Shown in pieces: positions 6,756-55,588 of a stretch of 64,000 nt of DNA. This DNA comes from Alphaproteobacteria bacterium MarineAlpha5_Bin5 (GTDB lineage Bacteria; Pseudomonadota; Alphaproteobacteria; HIMB59; GCA-002718135), in the NCBI GenBank assembly GCA_002938205.1, contig PTKZ01000003.1, forward strand, positions 23,667 to 87,666. Direction: 5' to 3'. Below the pieces are notes generated by a model. It saw only the letters and a program-made list of their open reading frames with translations, had not been told where the DNA came from and searched no databases. Numbering within the stretch: the first letter of the stretch is position 1; each line of letters begins with the position of its first letter. The translations under genes and the position numbers were made by a program.

Positions 6756-6800
6756 GGATTTGCCTAGAATAATTCGAATTTCCTGATATTAGACCCATTT

Positions 6801-9828: not shown

Positions 9829-10177
9829 TATATTTGCTAAAATTTTACGTGGCGAAATTCCGTGTGATAAAATTTATGAAGATGATAATGTTTTGTTTTT
9901 TTATGATATTAACCCATTAGCAAAAGTACATGTTTTAGGCATACCCAAGGTTAAGTGTAAAGATTTTTCAGAATTTGTTAAAAAAACAAATCCAGAAAAA
10001 ATTACAAATTTTTTTAAAAAAACTGAGATGATAATAAATAGGTTAGAAATTGCAGATTCTGGTTATAGAATTATATCAAATTCAGGACATGATGGCGGAC
10101 AGGAAGTTCCACATTTTCATATCCACATTCTTGGAGGTGAAAAGATTACAAATTTTTTTAAATTGGATCTAAAATAA
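9812..10177 (+). CDS. HIT family (histidine triad) protein
   Basis: 121 aa. It has FAKILRGEIPC and the triad HFHIHILGG. It overlaps hisE by 17 nt. Confidence 0.88.
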   Translation: MYDENNIFAKILRGEIPCDKIYEDDNVLFFYDINPLAKVHVLGIPKVKCKDFSEFVKKTNPEKITNFFKKTEMIINRLEIADSGYRIISNSGHDGGQEVPHFHIHILGGEKITNFFKLDLK

Positions 10178-30461: not shown

Positions 30462-32612
<2,151 letters not shown>

Positions 32613-32706
32613 TTAGAACTAATATAAATATACAAAGAAAAAATAGAAAAGCAAAAAGAAATTAATGATAATTTTTGATCTAAATCAAGAACTTCTAATA
32701 AATTAA

Positions 32707-46507: not shown

Positions 46508-46535
46508 CTTGAAATTATTGTATTGATACCTATAT
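46508..46535 (+). promoter_or_regulatory. Sigma-32-type promoter upstream of the Hsp20 gene
   Basis: CTTGAAA...(CTTG-N17)...CCTATAT fits CTTG-N17-CYTATNT exactly. It lies 60 nt upstream of the ATG. Confidence 0.6.
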
Positions 46536-46575
46536 AATTTATGTCGGTATGCCATTGTGGGTGCTGACATTTAAC

Positions 46576-46598
46576 TTGCTTAATAAGGAGTTTTTATG
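46576..46598 (+). promoter_or_regulatory. Candidate ROSE-like RNA thermometer hairpin masking the Shine-Dalgarno of the Hsp20 gene
   Basis: UUGCU (46576-46580) lies 5 nt upstream of AGGAG (46586-46590). Antiparallel pairing gives U:G, U:A, G.G, C:G and U:A, which is the U(U/C)GCU-versus-SD arrangement of ROSE elements. A second imperfect hairpin lies at about 46543-46568. Confidence 0.4.
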
Positions 46599-47033
46599 AC
46601 AAGAAACCTATCCGTATGGAATTCACTAAGACCGTTTTCAGTAGGATTTGACTCAATTTTTGAAGAATTTGATAAAATGTTAGATTCTTCAGAGCGCTAT
46701 AATTCAAATTATCCACCTTATAATATCCATCGTTCAGATGAGAATAATTATAAAATAGAAGTAGCTCTAGCCGGCTATAGCAAGGATGATATTGAAGTTG
46801 AACTTAAAGATAGCACATTAACTGTGAGGAACAAACAACAAGAAAAAGTTGTGAATCAAAATGGCAATGATGTTATTCATAAAGGCATATCAACAAGACA
46901 ATTTGAAAGAGCATTTACAATTTCAGAAGATATTAAAATTAAAAATGCTGAACTAAAAAATGGTCTGTTAAATATCAATTTGGAGCGCATAATCCCTGAA
47001 GAAAAAAAGGCACGGTTAATAGAAATTAAATAA
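46596..47033 (+). CDS. ibpA: Small heat shock protein (Hsp20/IbpA family)
   Basis: 145 aa with an alpha-crystallin domain: PPYNI...Y.IEVALAGYSKDDIEVEL.D..L.V and F.RAF.L. Confidence 0.9.
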   Translation: MTRNLSVWNSLRPFSVGFDSIFEEFDKMLDSSERYNSNYPPYNIHRSDENNYKIEVALAGYSKDDIEVELKDSTLTVRNKQQEKVVNQNGNDVIHKGISTRQFERAFTISEDIKIKNAELKNGLLNINLERIIPEEKKARLIEIK

Positions 47034-47050
47034 ATTAGAATTATTCTAAA
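47034..47050. promoter_or_regulatory. Irr/ICE-box-like perfect palindrome
   Basis: The sequence is ATTAGAATTATTCTAAA. Its core, TTAGAAT-T-ATTCTAA, is a perfect 7-1-7 inverted repeat and matches TTTAGAA-N3-TTCTAAA. Confidence 0.55.
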
Positions 47051-47067
47051 TAGATTTAATAAGGATA

Positions 47068-47096
47068 GGGGCCCAAAGTGGCCCCATTTTTATTTT
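47068..47096 (+). terminator. Rho-independent terminator after the Hsp20 gene
   Basis: GGGGCC (47068-47073) pairs with GGCCCC (47080-47085) around a 6-nt loop. ATTTTTATTTT follows. Confidence 0.75.
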
Positions 47097-47097
47097 A

Positions 47098-47125
47098 TTG
47101 GAAAATTATAAAAGTAAACTATAAT
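47098..47125 (+). promoter_or_regulatory. Sigma-70-like promoter, possibly producing a leaderless mRNA
   Basis: The sequence is TTGGAA-N16-TATAAT. The -10 element ends 6 nt before the ATG at 47132. AT-rich DNA makes chance matches likely. Confidence 0.35.
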
Positions 47126-47131
47126 TAATAT

Positions 47132-47833
47132 ATGAGGTTAAGTTTAATTATTATTTTTTTATTTAGCTCCAATCTATTTGCTCATCAGCCAAAGTTAATT
47201 AATTATTCACCTTCTTTAGATAATCCTCATCAGGTTATAGATCCAGAAATATCTAAAGCATATTATGGAAAGCTTAGTGGTGAACCACATTATTATATAA
47301 TTAATAGTGAAGAAGATTTTTTATTTTACACTGGTATTTTAAGTCCTAAAGTTGATGATGATTACTTATCGTTATCACTTGCTGTATATTCGATAAATGA
47401 AAAAAATAATAAAATATTAAAATTTTTTGCTGATGGTCAGAATTTTGAATGGGAAGCATGGTATGAACCGTATGCCAGAGATTGGTATTGGAAAGGGCCT
47501 GAAATAGGAGCCGAAGTAAATGAATATACAGGCTTTAAAAGAAGTTTTAATTTGTCTAAAGGTTCTTACTTAATACAAATTTTTAATAAGAATAATTTAG
47601 GTCATTACTCTCTTGCAGTTGGTGAAGCTGAATTTTTTGGGTCCAATGCATGGGAACAGATTTTAACATGGACTCCTATCCTTTTATATATTGGACCTTA
47701 TATGGATATAGTGCATTGGCAAAAATTTGATATTCGTGCGTATATTCCGCATATAGCTCTTGTAGTTTTAGTATTTCTAATTTATTTCATCATTAAAAAA
47801 TTATTCTTTAGAAAACAAAAAATGTTTGTATGA
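47132..47833 (+). CDS. Hypothetical exported/membrane-anchored protein with predicted N-terminal His after signal cleavage
   Basis: 233 aa. It has the signal peptide MRLSLIIIFLFSSNLFA followed by HQPK, and hydrophobic C-terminal segments (IPHIALVVLVFLIYFII). I recognise no family. It overlaps the hupE-like gene by 4 nt. Confidence 0.5.
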   Translation: MRLSLIIIFLFSSNLFAHQPKLINYSPSLDNPHQVIDPEISKAYYGKLSGEPHYYIINSEEDFLFYTGILSPKVDDDYLSLSLAVYSINEKNNKILKFFADGQNFEWEAWYEPYARDWYWKGPEIGAEVNEYTGFKRSFNLSKGSYLIQIFNKNNLGHYSLAVGEAEFFGSNAWEQILTWTPILLYIGPYMDIVHWQKFDIRAYIPHIALVVLVFLIYFIIKKLFFRKQKMFV

Positions 47834-48432
47834 AATTGAATTTAATTTTACTTTTTTCATCTATTTTATTTTTTACCTCTGCAGTTCAAGCACATACTTT
47901 TACTGGTATGGTAGGTTTTTATGATGGTCTTTCGCATCCAGTTTTGGGTATAGATCATTTTTTGGCAATGGTTAGTGTCGGTATTGTAAGCGCTCAAATA
48001 GGAGGAAGAGCAATTTGGACAATTCCTGCAACTTTTGTTTTAATGATGATTGTTGGCGGAATTATTGGCATGTTAGTTGAGGTTTTCTTTTTTGATTTAG
48101 AAGAATCCGCATTTATAGTTGTTGAATATGGAATAGTCTTTTCCGTCATATTATTGGGTTTAGCAATTGCTATAGAAAAAAAAATCGCCACTAATGTTAT
48201 AATGATTTTCATTTGCATTTTTGGACTGTGTCATGGATTAGCTCACGGAATGGAGATGCCATGGGCGGTTAATCCAATATTATTCGCACTTGGTTTTGCT
48301 TCTGGAACAGCCACGTTACATTTATTTGGTGTTGGAATCGGTAGCTTTGCAATTAAGAATAAATTTTCATCAATTGTTTTAAGGATTGTTGGATTCGGGT
48401 GTGTAGTTTTTGGAATATCATTATTAATTTAA
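47830..48432 (+). CDS. hupE: HupE/UreJ family metal transporter
   Basis: 200 aa. The signal peptide ends AVQA and is followed by HTFTG. It has GLSHPVLGIDHFLAMVSVG and several transmembrane segments. Confidence 0.8.
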   Translation: MKLNLILLFSSILFFTSAVQAHTFTGMVGFYDGLSHPVLGIDHFLAMVSVGIVSAQIGGRAIWTIPATFVLMMIVGGIIGMLVEVFFFDLEESAFIVVEYGIVFSVILLGLAIAIEKKIATNVIMIFICIFGLCHGLAHGMEMPWAVNPILFALGFASGTATLHLFGVGIGSFAIKNKFSSIVLRIVGFGCVVFGISLLI

Positions 48433-48433
48433 A

Positions 48434-48450
48434 ATTAGAATAATTCTAAA
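48434..48450. promoter_or_regulatory. Irr/ICE-box-like perfect palindrome
   Basis: The sequence is ATTAGAATAATTCTAAA. It is identical to the 47034 copy except for the central base. It lies in the 194-nt gap upstream of the DUF4856-like/hydroxylase/fbpAB genes. Confidence 0.55.
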
Positions 48451-48626
48451 AATATCTTTTTTTTATTATTTTATTTTTGTTTTTTTATAAATAATTTTTT
48501 TTTATTATTTAAATATATAAAACTCTTTGACTTTTTACGAGTCTGTGGGAGCTAATTAAAGTAATTAAGTTTCTCTAATTTCGTTTTTTAGCTCTCGCAA
48601 AATAATTAATTTACTATGAGGAGATT

Positions 48627-49994
48627 ATGAAAAAAACTTTTATTCTTATTTTTACAATATTCATTTCTTTTAGTTTTGTAAAAACTTCACTAGCTGATGT
48701 TTATGGGCCTTACCCAATTACCTTACAGGGATATGATGGAGATAAAACAAATTCAGTTAAATATACTGGACAAATGGCAAGACATGCGCTTCATGATAGT
48801 TTGAAAGCATTAGTCAAAACAGGTGATGTTTCTAAAATGATGGCATATTATAATGGTGAGGATAATTTGGAAATTATTGCACCTAAATCAAAAGATGATT
48901 TTGTAGTTAAGCAAACTATGATTTCAGAAATTGGTAGCGGCAATCTTTCTGGAAAAATGTACAAAGGATATATACCTGGTTGGGGCAACTTAACTGGACC
49001 AGAAGCAATAGAACATATGATGACTAAGGCAGGAGAAGTTGAGGGTGGATTTGATCCTGATACAGGAATGGATTACACACAACTAATTTCTAAATTTGCT
49101 ATGGGTGCTGTTTTTTATAATCAAGCTGTAAACAACTACCTAGGTAAAAAAATGGAAATCGGTCAAAAACCAAATAATAAACCATACAAAGATGGAGCTT
49201 ACTACACAGGTAAAGAACATAGCTGGGACGAAGCTTTTGGTTATTGGGGTTCAGCGGCACACGCATTAACTCTAAATGCAGAAGAAAATTATAATGTTGC
49301 AAAGAAAAAAGACATGGCATCTGCAGACTACAATGGTGATGGTGTTGTCGATTTATATTCAGAGTATACTTATGCCCATGCTTATTATGCTTCTAGCTAT
49401 GATAAAGGTGGTAAAACAAATTATTTAGCTACAATTAATCAAGCATTTATTAATGGAAGAGAAATCATTCGTGATGCAGATGGACGAAATTTAAGTTTTG
49501 ATGAAAGAACTAAATTATTGGCTAAAAGAGATGTTATTAGAGATAATTGGCAAAAAGTAATTGCTGAATCTGTCTTTAAATATGCCGGCTCTACCTATAA
49601 AGATCTAGTTAAGCTTGAGACGATTATGGAAGCTAATGGCGATACAACAGAAGCATTTAGAACTTATGCAAAACATTGGGGTGAACTTAAAGGTTTTGCA
49701 CTAGCTTTACAGTGCGGTCCTGATGATCTTGGAGAAACAGCAGTGAAGATGAATCGTATGATGGGATTTGGTCCTGTTCTTCTAAATTCCTCTCAAGTCG
49801 TTGGTGTTGACTCTCAAGGTAATTTTATTAAAGATCAAGCGCAAGATTGGTCTGAGTTTAAACTTCATATGCTTAAAATTCAAAAACTTATGGAGGATGA
49901 ATTTGGTGTAACTGCAAAGTCAAAAGATATGCTTTCTGATATGGCAGATCTTTCAGGAAAAATTGGAAGCGCTGACTCAGCAGAAAATGACTAA
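48627..49994 (+). CDS. Periplasmic protein, DUF4856-like (function unknown)
   Basis: 455 aa with a signal peptide. The core block EHSWDEAFGYWGSAAH and the Ca-loop-like DYNGDGVVD are present. The family assignment is from memory of the motif, not from a search. Confidence 0.45.
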   Translation: MKKTFILIFTIFISFSFVKTSLADVYGPYPITLQGYDGDKTNSVKYTGQMARHALHDSLKALVKTGDVSKMMAYYNGEDNLEIIAPKSKDDFVVKQTMISEIGSGNLSGKMYKGYIPGWGNLTGPEAIEHMMTKAGEVEGGFDPDTGMDYTQLISKFAMGAVFYNQAVNNYLGKKMEIGQKPNNKPYKDGAYYTGKEHSWDEAFGYWGSAAHALTLNAEENYNVAKKKDMASADYNGDGVVDLYSEYTYAHAYYASSYDKGGKTNYLATINQAFINGREIIRDADGRNLSFDERTKLLAKRDVIRDNWQKVIAESVFKYAGSTYKDLVKLETIMEANGDTTEAFRTYAKHWGELKGFALALQCGPDDLGETAVKMNRMMGFGPVLLNSSQVVGVDSQGNFIKDQAQDWSEFKLHMLKIQKLMEDEFGVTAKSKDMLSDMADLSGKIGSADSAEND

Positions 49995-50007
49995 AAATAT
50001 GTATTTT

Positions 50008-50046
50008 ATTGGTGCGTTTATTAATTTAAATGCACCAATATTTTAA
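50008..50046 (+). terminator. Hairpin/possible attenuating terminator after the DUF4856-like gene
   Basis: ATTGGTGC (50008-50015) pairs with GCACCAAT (50032-50039) and ATTTTAATT follows. The loop of about 14-16 nt is large, so this is weak as a terminator. Confidence 0.35.
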
Positions 50047-50048
50047 TT

Positions 50049-51068
50049 ATGGAATTAATTACTGAATATATAACAGGAATAAGTAATCAATTTTTTGATC
50101 CAAAAAAAAGGGTTTTTTTAATTTATATACTTTTATCTATATTAATTGCATTTTTTTGGTTTGTTTTTTATAAAAAAAAATCTTTACTGAGTTCTTTTAA
50201 AAAAATTTTTGATAAAAAGGTATTTTTTTCAACATCATCAAAATCTGACTACAAAGTCTTTTTAATTAATCAAATGATAATGATGTTAATTTCACCTTTT
50301 TTAATAACGCAATTAGCTATTGCCACTACTCTATATTTTTATTTCCATACTATTAATTGGCTAAGTGTTGGTATGTATAGTAACACTTTGCCAATTGTTT
50401 TTATTTCTTTATTTACTATTTTTCAATTTACTCTCGATGATTTTAGTAAATTTATTATTCATCGTTTTATGCATAAGTGGCCAATTTTGTGGTCAATTCA
50501 TAAAGTTCATCATTCAGCAACAACTCTAACACCAATGACTGTGTTTAGAACACATCCGCTTGAGGGAATAATTTTTTCAATTAGAAGTTCAGTAACACAA
50601 GCTGTGAGTATTTCAGTGTTCTTTTTTTTATTTGGCAATAGTGTAGATTTATTTACAATTTTAGGTGTGAATATTTTTGTTTTTTTATTTAACATTTTTG
50701 GATCTAATTTAAGACACTCTCATATTGGAATTAGGTACTGGCAATGGTTAGAACATATATTAATTTCACCTGCACAACATCAGTTACACCATTCAATTGC
50801 AAGGGAACACCATGATAAAAATTTTGGATCTGCTTTAGCTTGCTGGGATTGGATGTTTGGTTCTTTGCATCATTCAATTGAATTTGAAAATTTACAAATT
50901 GGTATTAAAAAAAATCAAATAGAAAATAGCCATAGTTTATCTAGTTTATATGTTGGGCCATTAATTGAGATAAATAATTTTATTATTAAAAAATTTTTAA
51001 AAACCAAATCTAAATTTATAGAATTGTTTTCAAAAACGGGATTAGTCAATGATAATAAAATTAATTAA
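50049..51068 (+). CDS. Fatty acid hydroxylase/sterol desaturase superfamily membrane protein
   Basis: 339 aa with several hydrophobic segments and three His boxes: HRFMH, HKVHH and HQLHH. Confidence 0.8.
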   Translation: MELITEYITGISNQFFDPKKRVFLIYILLSILIAFFWFVFYKKKSLLSSFKKIFDKKVFFSTSSKSDYKVFLINQMIMMLISPFLITQLAIATTLYFYFHTINWLSVGMYSNTLPIVFISLFTIFQFTLDDFSKFIIHRFMHKWPILWSIHKVHHSATTLTPMTVFRTHPLEGIIFSIRSSVTQAVSISVFFFLFGNSVDLFTILGVNIFVFLFNIFGSNLRHSHIGIRYWQWLEHILISPAQHQLHHSIAREHHDKNFGSALACWDWMFGSLHHSIEFENLQIGIKKNQIENSHSLSSLYVGPLIEINNFIIKKFLKTKSKFIELFSKTGLVNDNKIN

Positions 51069-52068
51069 GTTTTTTTTATTTAATATTTCAATATTTTCTA
51101 CACCAATTTTATTTTCAAAAGAAATTAACATTTACTCACATCGTCAGCCTTTTTTAATAAATCCATTTTTAGATCTTTTTACAGAAGAAACGGGAATTAA
51201 AACAAATGTTATATACTCTAAAACAGGTCTGGCTCAACGACTAAAAGCAGAAGGTGAGAATAGCCCAGCCGATGTTATTCTAACTGTTGATATAGGTAGG
51301 ATATACATATATGATGATTTAAATCTTCTTGCTCCTGTAAACTCAGCAAAACTTATAAATAATATTCCAGTGTACTTAAGAAGTCCTAATAATACATGGT
51401 TTGGTCTTTCTAAAAGAGCAAGAGTTATAGCGATAAATAAAAACAAAATAAAAGATGGTGATATATTAAGAATTGAAGATTTAGCTGATAAGAAGTGGAA
51501 AGGTAAAATATGTTCTCGACCAGGTAGTCATGTTTATAATAGAGGGATTATGGCTTCTGTAGTGGCGGCTCTAGGTGAAAAGGAAGCTGAAGAATGGGCA
51601 AAGAAATTAGTAAATAATTTTGCCAAAAGACCCCAGGGAAATGATAGAGCTCAAGTCAAGGCTATACATGAAGGTGAGTGTGATATTGCTTTAATTAATA
51701 ACTATTATTTTGGGAAGCTTAAATTTTCTGAAGATCCTGAACAGAGAAAATGGGTGGACAATGTTAAATTAGTTTTTCCTAATCAAGGAGAAAATGACAG
51801 GGGTGCCCATGTTAATATTTCAGGCGGAGGAGTTGTAAAGTTTTCTAAAAATAAAGAGAATGCTTTGGCCTTGCTTGAATTCCTAACAAGTGAAAAAGCA
51901 CAAAAATTATATGGAGAGATTAACTTTGAATATCCTGTTAATCCAAAAGTATCACCAAGTGTAGAGCTTCAAAAATGGGGCAAATTTAGAGAAGATAATT
52001 TGTCTATAATAAAAATTGCCGAACTAAGTCCATTATCACAAAAGATAATTGATAGAGTGGGATGGTAG
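51049..52068 (+). CDS. fbpA: Fe(3+) ABC transporter substrate-binding protein
   Basis: 339 aa with a signal peptide. INIYSHRQPFL and the AfuA/FbpA/SfuA-like body are present. It overlaps the hydroxylase gene by 20 nt. Confidence 0.85.
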   Translation: MIIKLIKFFLFNISIFSTPILFSKEINIYSHRQPFLINPFLDLFTEETGIKTNVIYSKTGLAQRLKAEGENSPADVILTVDIGRIYIYDDLNLLAPVNSAKLINNIPVYLRSPNNTWFGLSKRARVIAINKNKIKDGDILRIEDLADKKWKGKICSRPGSHVYNRGIMASVVAALGEKEAEEWAKKLVNNFAKRPQGNDRAQVKAIHEGECDIALINNYYFGKLKFSEDPEQRKWVDNVKLVFPNQGENDRGAHVNISGGGVVKFSKNKENALALLEFLTSEKAQKLYGEINFEYPVNPKVSPSVELQKWGKFREDNLSIIKIAELSPLSQKIIDRVGW

Positions 52069-52086
52069 TTTATAATATAGATCTTT

Positions 52087-53694
52087 TTGTACAACTGGAA
52101 TAGTTCATCAACAGTAGCCATTATTTTAGCTACTCTAATAATTGCACCTATTGTTGCAATTTTTCTTTCTGCTTTATTTGGTGATACAACTTTATGGCCA
52201 CACTTGTTTTCAACAGTTCTTCCCAGATATGTATATAACACAATTGTATTAATGATTGGTGTGGGTGCACTAAGTTTAATTTTTGGTATTTCAAGCGCCT
52301 GGGTTGTAACAAGATATAATTTTTTTGGAAAATTTATTTTTGAATGGGCTTTATTGCTTCCAGCTGCTGTGCCAGCCTATATCATTGCTTATACTTATAC
52401 AGACTTTCTTGAATATGCAGGTCCAGTCCAAATATTACTTAGAGAAATTTTTGGTTGGGATAATTCAGGAGACTATTGGTTTCCTGAAATCAGATCAATG
52501 GGCGGAGCAATTCTTGTAATTTCATGTGTGCTTTATCCATATATATATATGATGACCAGAGCATCTTTTTTAACTGTACCTATTTCATTTTATCAAACTA
52601 GCTTAATTTATGGGCGGAATAGTTTTTTATCTGTTGCTTTGCCTTTAGCTAGACCTGGAATTTTTGCAGGCTTAGCACTTGTTTTAATGGAAACGATTTC
52701 AGATTTTGGAACAGTAGAATATTTTGCTTTAGAAACCTTAACGCTAGGTGTTTTTAATGTTTGGTTAGGTATGAATAGTTTATCTGGTGCGGCACAAATA
52801 TCTTCAGTGTTATTTATTTTTGTTGTTGTACTTTTAACAATTGAATATTTAGCCAGACGTCGTCAGAGGTTTCACGAAATTAGTAGTGGTCAAAATATGC
52901 TTGAATCTGAGAATTTAAGTAACTCAAAGAAATTGCTATGTTTTTTAATTTGCTTAGTACCCATTCTATTAGGTTTTGTAATCCCCGTTTTAATTTTATT
53001 AAATTTTGTTTTTAGTGGATTTTCTATTATTGATTTTAAAGAAATTTTTAGAACAGCTTTTACAAGTATATCATTGGCTTTTTTTGGATCTTTATTTGTA
53101 ATGCTTACATCAGTTTTAATGATGATTATTTCAAATTATAAGTCAAACAACTTTCAAAAATCGTTAATTTTTTTAGCTTCTTGTGGTTATGCTCTTCCAG
53201 GAACAATACTAGCTGTTGGAATAGTAATTTTTGTTGGATGGCTCAATCAAATAATACACTTTCAATTAAGTTACGTTTTGGGCGGCTTTATAGTATTAAT
53301 TTTTGCTTATATTACAAGATTTTTGGCAGTGGGAAATGCCGCTATTAGATCTGGTATTTTAAAAATTCACCCTAATGCTATGGATGCCTCACTAACCATG
53401 GGTGCTGGTTTTATGGATAGTATTAGAAAAATTATTATACCATTATTATTTACTAATATATTAATTGGAGGGATTTTAGTTTTTGTTGATATTTTAAAAG
53501 AGCTTCCTATTACTCTATTATTAAGACCTTTTAATTTTGAAACTCTTGCAACTTATGTCTATCAGTATGCTTCTGATGAATTATTACAAGAATCATCATT
53601 TGCTGCTTTAATTATTATTGTTGTAGGTTTGGGCCCAGTGATTTTTTTGAACTCTACACTTCAGCGTGTATCTAGAAAAAAACAAAGCAATTAG
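52087..53694 (+). CDS. fbpB: Fe(3+) ABC transporter permease (fused two-domain)
   Basis: 535 aa with a TTG start. It is a duplicated binding-protein-dependent permease fold of typical FbpB/SfuB size. Confidence 0.85.
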   Translation: MYNWNSSSTVAIILATLIIAPIVAIFLSALFGDTTLWPHLFSTVLPRYVYNTIVLMIGVGALSLIFGISSAWVVTRYNFFGKFIFEWALLLPAAVPAYIIAYTYTDFLEYAGPVQILLREIFGWDNSGDYWFPEIRSMGGAILVISCVLYPYIYMMTRASFLTVPISFYQTSLIYGRNSFLSVALPLARPGIFAGLALVLMETISDFGTVEYFALETLTLGVFNVWLGMNSLSGAAQISSVLFIFVVVLLTIEYLARRRQRFHEISSGQNMLESENLSNSKKLLCFLICLVPILLGFVIPVLILLNFVFSGFSIIDFKEIFRTAFTSISLAFFGSLFVMLTSVLMMIISNYKSNNFQKSLIFLASCGYALPGTILAVGIVIFVGWLNQIIHFQLSYVLGGFIVLIFAYITRFLAVGNAAIRSGILKIHPNAMDASLTMGAGFMDSIRKIIIPLLFTNILIGGILVFVDILKELPITLLLRPFNFETLATYVYQYASDELLQESSFAALIIIVVGLGPVIFLNSTLQRVSRKKQSN

Positions 53695-54737
53695 CTTTGA
53701 AACATGAATGTTTCACTTTGATCTATTTCAATTTCTACTGCAGATGATTGTTGGGGATTAAAATCAGGAGGCATATGACTATGAATATGTATCACTTCAT
53801 TGTTTTTGTCCAGAACTGATAAATGTATAAAACTGAAAGATCCAATTAGTTTTGACGCCATTACAGTACCTTTAATTCCGTTAACAGGGGTTGGCTGTTC
53901 ATTCAACTTTATACCTTTTGGTCTTATATGAACTTCAACTTTTTTATTTTCAAGATTATTAGGTGCTTTAATTTTTCCAAGAGGGGTATCAACAAATGAA
54001 TTATTTACAATGCCTTCAAACTTATTTGTTTCTCCAAAAAATTCAGTTACATAAGAATTATTAGGGTTATTATATAATTCTTCTGCCGTTCCTGTCTGTA
54101 TAATGTGACCAGATGTATCCATTATATTTATTTGATTTGAAATAAACATAGCCTCGAAAGGATCATGGGTAACTATTATTACAGACACATTTGATTTTTG
54201 AAGTAAATGTAATGTGTCATCTCTTACCTCTTCTCTTAAGTTTAGATCTAAACTTGAGAACGGTTCATCAAGTAATAACAAGTCTGGATTAGAAATAATT
54301 GATCTTGCTAAAGCTACTCTTTGTTGTTCACCTCCACTTAATTCATGAGGATATTTATTTAAAGAATTAGGAAGTTTGATTAATTCCGCCATATCTTCAA
54401 TAGTATGAGCAGAATTTTTAAAATTTATTGGATACTCAAGATTTTGTTTAACGGTTAAGTGAGGAAATAAGGCATAATCTTGAAATAAAAAACCAACCTT
54501 TCTTTTTTCTGTTGGTAAGTGATGAGTTAATGAACTAACTTCATTATCATTAATTGTAATGGAGCCTGATTGGACTCTTTCAAGACCAGCAATTAATTTT
54601 AAGAGTGTTGTTTTGCCACTACCTGACGGGCCAAGAATACAGGCTATGGTATCTTTTTTTAATTCAAAATTAATATTTTGAAGAATGGGTTGATTCTTTA
54701 TAGAATAATTAAGATTCTTTATTTTAACAGCTTCCAT
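53691..54737 (-). CDS. fbpC: Fe(3+)/spermidine-type ABC transporter ATP-binding protein
   Basis: 348 aa with the Walker A motif GPSGSGKTT, LSGGEQQRVALAR and a C-terminal TOBE-like domain. It is convergent with fbpB and overlaps it by 4 nt. Confidence 0.85.
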   Translation of the reverse strand: MEAVKIKNLNYSIKNQPILQNINFELKKDTIACILGPSGSGKTTLLKLIAGLERVQSGSITINDNEVSSLTHHLPTEKRKVGFLFQDYALFPHLTVKQNLEYPINFKNSAHTIEDMAELIKLPNSLNKYPHELSGGEQQRVALARSIISNPDLLLLDEPFSSLDLNLREEVRDDTLHLLQKSNVSVIIVTHDPFEAMFISNQINIMDTSGHIIQTGTAEELYNNPNNSYVTEFFGETNKFEGIVNNSFVDTPLGKIKAPNNLENKKVEVHIRPKGIKLNEQPTPVNGIKGTVMASKLIGSFSFIHLSVLDKNNEVIHIHSHMPPDFNPQQSSAVEIEIDQSETFMFQS

Positions 54738-55561
54738 TAGGCACTTATAGCAGGGTACTTAGCGTTAACAAGTGGTATCCATTCTTTTAATTTTTTTATA
54801 CGATTATCTGGTGAAGGATGAGTGCTAAAAAATTCAGAAGGTCCAGAGCCGCCAACATCTTCTTTCATTCGTTCCCATACTTTATATGATTCATTAATAT
54901 CATATCCTCCTAAACTTGAAAAAATTAATCCTAAATAGTCAGCTTCTGATTCTTGTTTACGATTAAAAGGAAGATCTAATCCAAATTGACGAACATATCC
55001 AGCTGCTTTTGGTAGTCTTTGACCTAAGACTAGTTGTTCTAAAGCCATTGTTCCCACATCTGCTAAAATTGCTGTACTTGCTCTTTCAGCTGAGTGTCTT
55101 GCTACGGCGTGGGCAACTTCATGGCCCATAATGGAAGCAATACCATCTTGATTTTTTGCAATCGGCAAAATACCTGAATAAAATGCAATTTTACCTCCAG
55201 GCATACACCAAGCATTTTTTGTTTGATCATCATCTACTAATACAAATTCCCATTGAAAGTTTGATGTTGGATTTTCTAGATTGTTATATTGATAATACGC
55301 ATTGATAGCATCACGGATTTTATATCCTATTTCTACTATCTGATCATATTCGGCAGTACCAGTAATCAATTTAGTTTGCGATTTAAAATTATTATAAGCA
55401 GGAAAAGTTTTTGAATAAAGAAAATCATCAGACAAAATATTAAATTGTTTTCTATCTGACATAGCTACTTCAGTGCATGCAGGTAGCAATAAGCCACTTG
55501 CGCATGTGCAACCAGCTGTGTAAATAAATTTTCTTCTTGATAAATGTATTAATTTTGACAT
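54737..55561 (-). CDS. M48 family zinc metallopeptidase with Tat-like signal
   Basis: 274 aa. It has HEVAHAVARH (HExxH) and a downstream ESEAD. The N-terminus LSRRKFIYTAGCTCASGLLLPAC resembles a twin-arginine signal with candidate lipobox cysteines. Its stop overlaps the fbpC start by 1 nt. Confidence 0.8.
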   Translation of the reverse strand: MSKLIHLSRRKFIYTAGCTCASGLLLPACTEVAMSDRKQFNILSDDFLYSKTFPAYNNFKSQTKLITGTAEYDQIVEIGYKIRDAINAYYQYNNLENPTSNFQWEFVLVDDDQTKNAWCMPGGKIAFYSGILPIAKNQDGIASIMGHEVAHAVARHSAERASTAILADVGTMALEQLVLGQRLPKAAGYVRQFGLDLPFNRKQESEADYLGLIFSSLGGYDINESYKVWERMKEDVGGSGPSEFFSTHPSPDNRIKKLKEWIPLVNAKYPAISA

Positions 55562-55588
55562 TTACTATCTAAATATAAAAAAATTCAT

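Follow-up and report, generated by a model that had tools for sequence, protein, structure and literature searches.

We identified two perfect copies of a palindrome resembling the iron control element (ICE) in a 64-kb stretch of contig PTKZ01000003.1 from Alphaproteobacteria bacterium MarineAlpha5_Bin5 (64,000 nucleotides [nt], here called the window). One copy (box 1) lies beside an hsp20 gene and the other (box 2) heads an iron-uptake operon encoding a DUF4856 protein, a hydroxylase-like protein, FbpA and FbpB. Judged from their sequence and surroundings, the palindromes are very probably bound by a regulator of the Fur/Irr family that senses iron. The more specific proposal, that both are ICE-type operators for a Fur-superfamily dimer, most likely Irr-like, that would activate iron uptake, has in our estimate slightly better than an even chance of being correct. 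Comparison with relatives indicates that box 2, which is conserved 5' of the iron-uptake operon, is the ancestral site and that box 1 is a recent, species-specific gain or the sharpening of a weak site.

Box 1, ATTAGAATTATTCTAAA, 47034-47050 (core 47035-47049), no strand assigned: 3' of the hsp20 stop codon and 5' of the hsp20 terminator.
Box 2, ATTAGAATAATTCTAAA, 48434-48450 (core 48435-48449), no strand assigned: just 3' of the hupE stop codon.

Both boxes contain the 15-bp core TTAGAAT-N-ATTCTAA, and the single difference between the cores is the central base. This core is the real palindrome, since the terminal bases of each 17-mer (A...A) are unpaired. Core 1 starts 1 nt after the hsp20 stop codon (open reading frame [ORF] end, 47033), and core 2 starts 2 nt after that of hupE (48432). 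These positions, the single central difference and the placement 1 to 2 nt past stop codons had been described in an earlier interpretation made from the letters alone (the sequence-only reading), and all were borne out when the sequence was checked. That reading had also found no further perfect copy by eye. A motif scan of the window agreed, returning two perfect 15-mers, and none occurred in 100 dinucleotide-preserving shuffles. At the base composition of the window (G+C content, ~30%), 0.004 perfect copies would be expected per 64 kb and ~0.1 per 1.5 Mb. With up to two mismatches there were 7 sites in the window versus 2.0 expected. The looser pattern TTAGAA-N3-TTCTAA, which the sequence-only reading had proposed as a search term, fared less well: with up to two mismatches, it occurred at 19 sites in the window versus 17.3 expected, which is no enrichment. 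Because relaxed versions of the motif are not enriched, the perfect sites alone count as evidence.

The conservation of the boxes was assessed by scanning species-representative genomes for FbpA, which yielded 80 loci, and by comparing the 33 that came from AT-rich relatives (71 to 84% FbpA identity). These related loci are HIMB59/MarineAlpha5-like and comprise 537 kb in total; MarineAlpha5 has been grouped with HIMB59 (PMC8879329). The matches listed in the FbpA homologue search were close relatives only, and P. ubique was not reached. A box with at most one mismatch was found 5' of the DUF4856 gene in about 30 of the 33 relatives, and two more had a copy with two mismatches. When 18 of the regions were aligned, box 2 was the sole invariant block in an otherwise unconserved AT-rich spacer. 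Across the 537 kb, every site with at most one mismatch, except one, sat just 5' of the DUF4856 operon, and the number of perfect copies expected by chance was ~0.04. Near-identical contigs from Tara and other marine metagenomes contained both boxes, and box 1 was perfect in 6/6 metagenome contigs from the same population.

The distance from box to downstream element was almost fixed. The interval between the center of a box and the first conserved base of the element that follows was 84 to 87 nt in 43/43 box-element pairs, which were drawn from about 28 related loci together with box 2 of the window. The element was either the operon leader (YAGATYC...) or a conserved 75-nt element (TACTTCCGTTCC...), and the spacer sequence in between was unconserved. 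Rigid spacing combined with free spacer sequence is what is predicted for an activator site that must lie on one face of the helix, and this strengthens the guess of the sequence-only reading that the boxes are upstream activator-type sites. In the window, two elements downstream of box 2 can be placed by alignment:

48514-48521, plus strand: putative -10 element of the operon promoter, TATATAAA, a TATAAA-like block in the alignment of the 18 orthologous regions.
48526-48626, plus strand: structured 5' leader of the operon.

The TATAAA-like block lies 7 to 9 nt before the conserved start of the leader in the alignment. This would put the center of box 2 near -80 to -82 relative to the presumed transcription start and the site itself ~50 nt 5' of where a -35 element would lie. 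Box 1 has a comparable position. Its center is ~90 nt 5' of the ATG of the next gene, which encodes a 233-amino-acid (aa) protein, and 48 nt separate the box from the -35 element of that gene's promoter. The sequence-only reading had given this last distance as about 50 nt and had placed box 1 between the hsp20 stop codon and its terminator; both statements held.

We then considered which known operator the boxes resemble most. Both match the ICE consensus TTTRGAAYNRTTCYAAA (Rodionov et al. 2006), the element of the Irr system of Bradyrhizobium japonicum, other Rhizobiales and Rhodobacterales, at 16/17 positions, and the 15-bp core is identical. The one difference is an outer base, which is A in the window boxes and T in the consensus. 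The earlier assignment of the core to ICE, with the 7-1-7 layout of Fur-family boxes, is thus upheld. The likeness extends to the alphaproteobacterial host and to noncoding sites located 5' of iron genes (DUF4856-fbpAB for box 2 and the 233-aa gene/hupE for box 1). It also extends to conservation at orthologous positions for box 2 (~32 loci), but not for box 1. The targets differ: in P. ubique, the closest organism that has been studied, the predicted Irr regulon consists only of rubrerythrin, before which an ICE site has been predicted (Rodionov et al. 2006), whereas the target in the window is an Fe(III) ABC-transporter operon. Irr can activate directly at upstream ICE sites and repress at those that overlap promoters (PMC7762939). 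In "Candidatus Pelagibacter ubique," homologous Fe(III) transporter genes are the genes most strongly induced by iron limitation, and rubrerythrin is also induced, to a lesser extent (PMC2864753). HIMB59 has no apparent Fur box, yet it has a Fur-like gene (Hogle et al. 2016; PMC4771312).

Metagenome contigs of any G+C content were scanned for the exact 15-mer, and 120 unrelated contigs were returned. About 90% of the sites in these contigs were intergenic. The most frequent families among 63 neighboring proteins were Ferritin-like (10 proteins), Rubrerythrin (9), FUR (4), AhpC (3) and KatG (2); the four FUR proteins were PerR-like and were encoded in nonalphaproteobacterial contigs. Two AT-rich contigs led to alphaproteobacterial genomes in which the box overlaps the stop codon of a gene for a 132-aa Fur-family protein and precedes rubrerythrin. 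This protein scored 133 bits against IrrA, 131 against Irr, 70 against PerR and 37 against Fur, and it has an HHH motif but no Cys4 site. The Fur-family neighbors and the adjacency to an Irr-like gene point to the 15-mer being a Fur-superfamily operator of the PerR/Irr type, whose partner in AT-rich marine alphaproteobacteria would be Irr-like.

The loci with this irr-rubrerythrin order (L207-L212, ~9860-10000) carry the perfect box over the irr stop codon and also have an imperfect copy (TTTAGAAATGATCTAAA) that directly follows a TATAAT, ~50 nt 5' of the rubrerythrin start. Together the sites look like a distal-plus-proximal pair. In other Irr-like lineages (L228, L237 and L240), fabA is divergent from irr, katG directly follows irr, and box-like sites lie over the katG -10 element and 5' of irr. 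The KatG protein encoded in the window is only 56 to 72% identical to those of these Irr-bearing lineages. The box-like sites at the katG -10 element and the distal boxes indicate that both repressing and distal geometries exist, as the literature on Irr describes. An Irr-like protein is also annotated in a MarineAlpha6 bin.

The genes flanking the boxes were inspected by Pfam analysis, which confirmed the identities suggested by the sequence-only reading (Hsp20, HupE/UreJ, DUF4856, hydroxylase-like, fbpA and fbpB). The features of the locus are as follows:

46596-47033: hsp20, identified by Pfam.
47068-47085, plus strand: hsp20 intrinsic terminator, made up of the hairpin GGGGCC-N6-GGCCCC and a T run after it, 3' of box 1 and 5' of the next promoter.
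47098-47125, plus strand: promoter-like site of the 233-aa gene and hupE, TTGGAA-N16-TATAAT, with 10/12 consensus matches.
47132-47833, plus strand: gene for a 233-aa protein of unknown family, with a signal peptide, a mature N terminus HQPK... and a C-terminal transmembrane helix.
47830-48432, plus strand: hupE, for a HupE/UreJ membrane protein (Pfam PF04955, E = 1.5e-44), a putative Ni/Co-type metal permease.
48627-53694, plus strand: the operon headed by box 2, identified by Pfam, with its gene order kept in relatives.
48627-49994, plus strand: gene for the DUF4856 protein (Pfam).
50049-51068, plus strand: gene for a fatty-acid-hydroxylase-like membrane protein (Pfam).
51049-52068, plus strand: fbpA, for the periplasmic Fe(III)-binding protein (Pfam).
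52087-53694, plus strand: fbpB, for the permease (Pfam).
53691-54737, minus strand: gene for an fbpC-like ABC ATPase, outside the boxed operon and downstream of an M48 peptidase gene.

The hsp20 terminator is kept in relatives. In the promoter of the 233-aa gene, 6 nt separate the end of the -10 hexamer from the ATG, and there is no Shine-Dalgarno sequence (47098-47134); relatives are alike in this respect, and this promoter arrangement is kept in L019-L024 and L065. The mRNA of this gene is probably leaderless or nearly so. The gene was always paired with hupE, whose coding sequence overlaps it by 4 nt, and its orthologues lie 5' of hupE in relatives. Like HupE, the 233-aa protein has His as the first residue after the signal peptide. 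It had no match in Pfam, NCBIfam or a sequence search of PDB, and the DUF4856 protein likewise had none in the PDB sequence search. The coding sequences of the operon overlap or are closely spaced, and its FbpA is 100% identical to the protein annotated as "Iron uptake protein A1" in MarineAlpha5_Bin5. No box with at most one mismatch was found near fbpC. This gene converges on fbpB with a 4-nt overlap, and the sole intergenic DNA upstream of it is 27 bp (53691-55588).

We propose that an Irr-like regulator encoded elsewhere in the genome would occupy each box as a dimer. From about -81 at box 2, it would activate the promoter of the DUF4856/hydroxylase-like/fbpA/fbpB operon when iron or heme is scarce, in parallel with the action of Irr at iron-uptake genes of Bradyrhizobium. 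Box 1, at its similar distance (~90 nt), would put the 233-aa gene/hupE metal-transporter pair under the same control in this species. For this lineage, we presume from these comparisons which regulator is involved, where transcription starts, in which direction regulation works and that iron is the signal. The supposition of the sequence-only reading that a single metal-responsive regulator controls both units is partly supported; the ICE match and the Fur-family association of the motif speak for it, and box 1 is perfect in this species only.

Several observations weigh against this proposal. Box 1 is not conserved: the nearest relatives have a copy with two to three mismatches (TTAGAAGTATTATAA or TTATAAGTATTATAA) and others have none, so that box 1 could be nonfunctional. 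A consensus promoter scan did not call the operon promoter, which has no recognizable -35 element, and the transcription starts used above are deduced from conservation only. No Fur-family gene was detected by tblastn in the 64-kb window or within 8 kb on either side of fbp in the 33 relatives, with E. coli Fur, B. japonicum Irr and B. subtilis PerR as queries. Irr-like genes occur in many AT-rich marine lineages, but profile searches, cluster names and accession matching placed none provably in MarineAlpha5_Bin5 or in the single-amplified genomes (SAGs) that carry the boxed locus. In other phyla, an identical 15-mer serves PerR-like proteins, so the paralogue cannot be told from the motif. 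In P. ubique, the Fbp operon has been assigned to Fur rather than Irr (Rodionov et al. 2006). Finally, the katG gene of the window has no good box in its upstream region (32598-32706), although katG is box associated in other Irr-bearing lineages.

30462-32597, minus strand: katG.

Upstream of this gene we found only a half-site, TTAGAAC..., beside the ribosome-binding site and a partial Fur-like AATGATAAT stretch.

The main rival explanation is that a metal-loaded repressor, either a Fur of altered specificity or a PerR-like protein, binds the boxes when iron is plentiful or peroxide is absent. Such a protein would repress from a distance by oligomerizing along the AT-rich spacer or would block readthrough from hsp20 and hupE. 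We regard this as unlikely, although it deserves more weight than any other alternative. SAR11 Fur boxes such as ATTGAGAATAATTCTCATT differ from the window boxes by a single base in each half-site (TGAGAAT in SAR11 and TTAGAAT in the window). The SAR11 boxes share the 7-1-7 layout and a function in Fe3+ ABC uptake (Rodionov et al. 2006; Hogle et al. 2016), and the homologous SAR11 operon is under Fur. The placement of both boxes directly after the stop codons of upstream genes would suit a readthrough block, as would the lack of a terminator after hupE in the terminator/promoter scan of the region. Three properties of the boxes weaken the repressor explanation. The first is the base at position 2, which is G in all 21 SAR11 Fur boxes listed and T in the window boxes and in every conserved copy in relatives (with A at position 14); this T is invariant over dozens of genomes. 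Neither box fits the classical/SAR11 Fur core TGA(T/G)AAT-N-ATT(C/A)TCA, which has G at position 2 and C at position 14. The second is the distal position. SAR11 Fur boxes lie over the promoter, 15 to 52 nt from the sfuC/FutA-like gene for the Fe3+-binding protein, whereas the center of box 2 is 185 nt 5' of the DUF4856 ATG that opens the four-gene operon and 2.6 kb from fbpA, and the site is 5' of the presumed -35 element rather than in a promoter-overlapping operator position. The third is the spacing, which is fixed to within 1 to 2 nt over a spacer of free sequence; neither spreading nor a roadblock needs such rigidity. The window contained no intergenic match, with at most one mismatch, to the SAR11-type Fur box TGAKAATNATTMTCA.

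The PerR form of this explanation can be judged in the same way. The B. subtilis PerR box is TTATAAT-N-ATTATAA. It shares with the window boxes the T at position 2 and the 7-1-7 layout, and it reportedly stands one base per half-site from them (Fuangthong and Helmann 2003), which favors a repressor; the difference is at position 4, which is G in the window boxes and T in the PerR box. The Fur-family genes that adjoin the exact 15-mer outside the alphaproteobacteria are also PerR-like, and in unrelated contigs the 15-mer adjoins ahpC, dps and katG in addition to these genes. In the window, however, the boxed genes are metal transporters rather than katG, ahpC, dps or perR, and katG, the peroxide gene of the window, is without a box.

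Two further observations on motifs were made. In a gammaproteobacterial SAG, the fbpA homologue is preceded at a distance of 88 nt by a textbook Fur box, TGAGAATCATTCTCA (L076:7913-7927), which is instructive by contrast with the TTAGAAT type. CIRCE, ARG-box and LexA-type motifs were considered and rejected as identities for the boxes since their half-site spacing did not match.

The remaining explanations depend on what lies between hsp20 and the DUF4856 operon, where the relatives display at least six architectures:

Architecture 1 (window): hsp20, box, terminator, 233-aa gene, hupE, box, operon.
Architecture 2 (L024): as in the window, with a degenerate box 1 (TTAGAAGTATTATAA).
Architecture 3 (L019 class): hupE, box, gene for a 119- to 122-aa helix-turn-helix (HTH)-like protein, box, operon.
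Architecture 4 (L003 class): hupE, box, 75-nt conserved element, box, operon.
Architecture 5 (L010 class): no hupE pair; hsp20, terminator, box, element, box, operon.
Architecture 6 (L249 and L008): a different upstream gene (UPF0093), box, operon.

Each unit placed in this intergenic region brings its own box. The 233-aa gene/hupE pair is a presence/absence polymorphism and is missing in ~12 related loci (window compared with L005, L007, L010-L018, L061, L067 and L077). The earlier statement that twin boxes flank the HupE pair is accordingly true of the window's species. It does not extend to relatives, in which the pair is absent or both boxes lie 3' of hupE, and box 1 is degenerate or missing.

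The HTH-like ORF lies between two boxes in nine relatives (L019:4977-5345, L002:4983-5342 and seven others). Its products are 71 to 90% identical in eight loci and 36% identical in the ninth, and there is a weak HTH_36 match (E = 0.005). The conserved position of the ORF, exactly between box A and box B, and this HTH match raise the notion that its product binds the box, autoregulates and controls the operon, the gene having been lost or moved in the window's species. We consider this improbable. In the DNA of the loci examined, neither the window nor most of the relatives with a box have the ORF; in L012 it is frameshifted, and both boxes there are still perfect. Furthermore, in unrelated contigs the exact motif goes with genes and regulons of the Fur family.

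That link to Fur-family regulons elsewhere also bears on the idea, marginally less credible still, that the boxes mark junctions or sites of recombination in a gene-cassette hot spot, or that they are nonregulatory palindromic repeats. The content between hsp20 and DUF4856 does vary, through the hupE pair, the HTH gene and the 75-nt element, and the boxes do stand at unit boundaries. In most cassette-bearing relatives, though, the left junction has no box, and the spacing from box to downstream promoter is fixed. Among the ORFs that were inspected near the locus, we noted neither an integrase nor a transposase.

A role of the palindromes as RNA, in the form of 3'-end hairpins or terminators of hsp20 and hupE, would account for their start 1 to 2 nt past a stop codon but is scarcely tenable and was rejected on folding energy: the boxes fold at about -2 kcal/mol versus -14.9 kcal/mol for the hsp20 terminator hairpin 20 nt downstream, the box comes after the terminator or other genes in relatives, and no Rfam family was matched.

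Of the sequences downstream of the boxes, two have features of structured RNA. The first is the operon leader, in which the following elements were located:

48529-48532 pairing with 48540-48543, plus strand: helix P1.
48545-48555 pairing with 48588-48598, plus strand: helix P2.
48618-48623, plus strand: Shine-Dalgarno sequence GAGGAG.

Both leader hairpins are kept in relatives. P2 has two compensatory pairs within the window's class, and in the L003 class the whole helix is rewritten (GTGGAGATAAG/CTTATCTCCAC). Rfam searches of the region and of one relative gave no family match, only subthreshold noise. We regard the leader as a candidate cis-regulatory RNA of the iron-uptake operon.

The second is the near-invariant ~75-nt element found between box A and box B in L003 (5263-5352), L010 (5205-5296) and 16 other loci, but not in the window. 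It starts 85 to 86 nt from the center of box A. Its CU-rich 5' tail (UACUUCCGUUCC) is single stranded, and a long hairpin (GGUGGUUAG...CUAACCACC) comes next. The hairpin has one covarying pair (G-C/G-U/A-U), and some copies have a U-rich tract. The element also contains a 12-codon ORF, MVVSF(F/Y)NIITHI. The element is possibly a small RNA under the control of the box, with an anti-Shine-Dalgarno sequence as its seed.

These elements can be combined with the favored Irr-type operator in a broader and more speculative proposal. Iron acquisition in the HIMB59/AEGEAN-169-related lineage would be activated directly by a regulator of the Irr type rather than by Fur, from about -81 on one face of the helix. 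The intergenic region would serve as a landing pad for interchangeable boxed units (the hupE pair, the small HTH gene and the 75-nt RNA), of which the RNA could be a RyhB-like iron-sparing regulator. Taken as a whole, this proposal is doubtful, and we offer it as a long shot.

Fur-family control of SAR11 Fe3+ ABC transporters and the ICE/Irr system were already known. What appears to be new is that a box of the ICE type, not the Fur type, heads the iron-uptake operon in a HIMB59-related lineage without a previously reported iron box, together with the conserved -81-type geometry and the modular nature of the site. Bacteria of the AEGEAN-169/HIMB59 type are abundant in iron-poor surface oceans, and the operator with its conserved operon could be tested in metatranscriptomes as an indicator of iron limitation, like sfuC in SAR11. 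It would also represent a case of regulon rewiring among Fur-family paralogues in streamlined genomes and would offer a way to find the rest of the iron regulon, to which a small RNA may belong. The result leaves the general view of Fur/Irr regulation as it was; it should be useful to marine microbiologists and is unsurprising in principle.

Two minor observations were made elsewhere in the window. The hsp20 leader (46543-46601) gave a weak match to the ROSE_3 RNA thermometer (23.5 bits versus a family threshold of 43 bits; E = 0.056), and a promoter, TTGAAA-N18-TATAAT, lies upstream of this ROSE_3-like stretch at 46509-46538. A near-box with two outer mismatches, CTAGAATAATTCGAA, is located at 6764-6778 in the divergent intergenic DNA between hslV and hisB, 55 nt from the hslV start; hslUV is induced under iron limitation in "Ca. 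Pelagibacter ubique" (PMC2864753).

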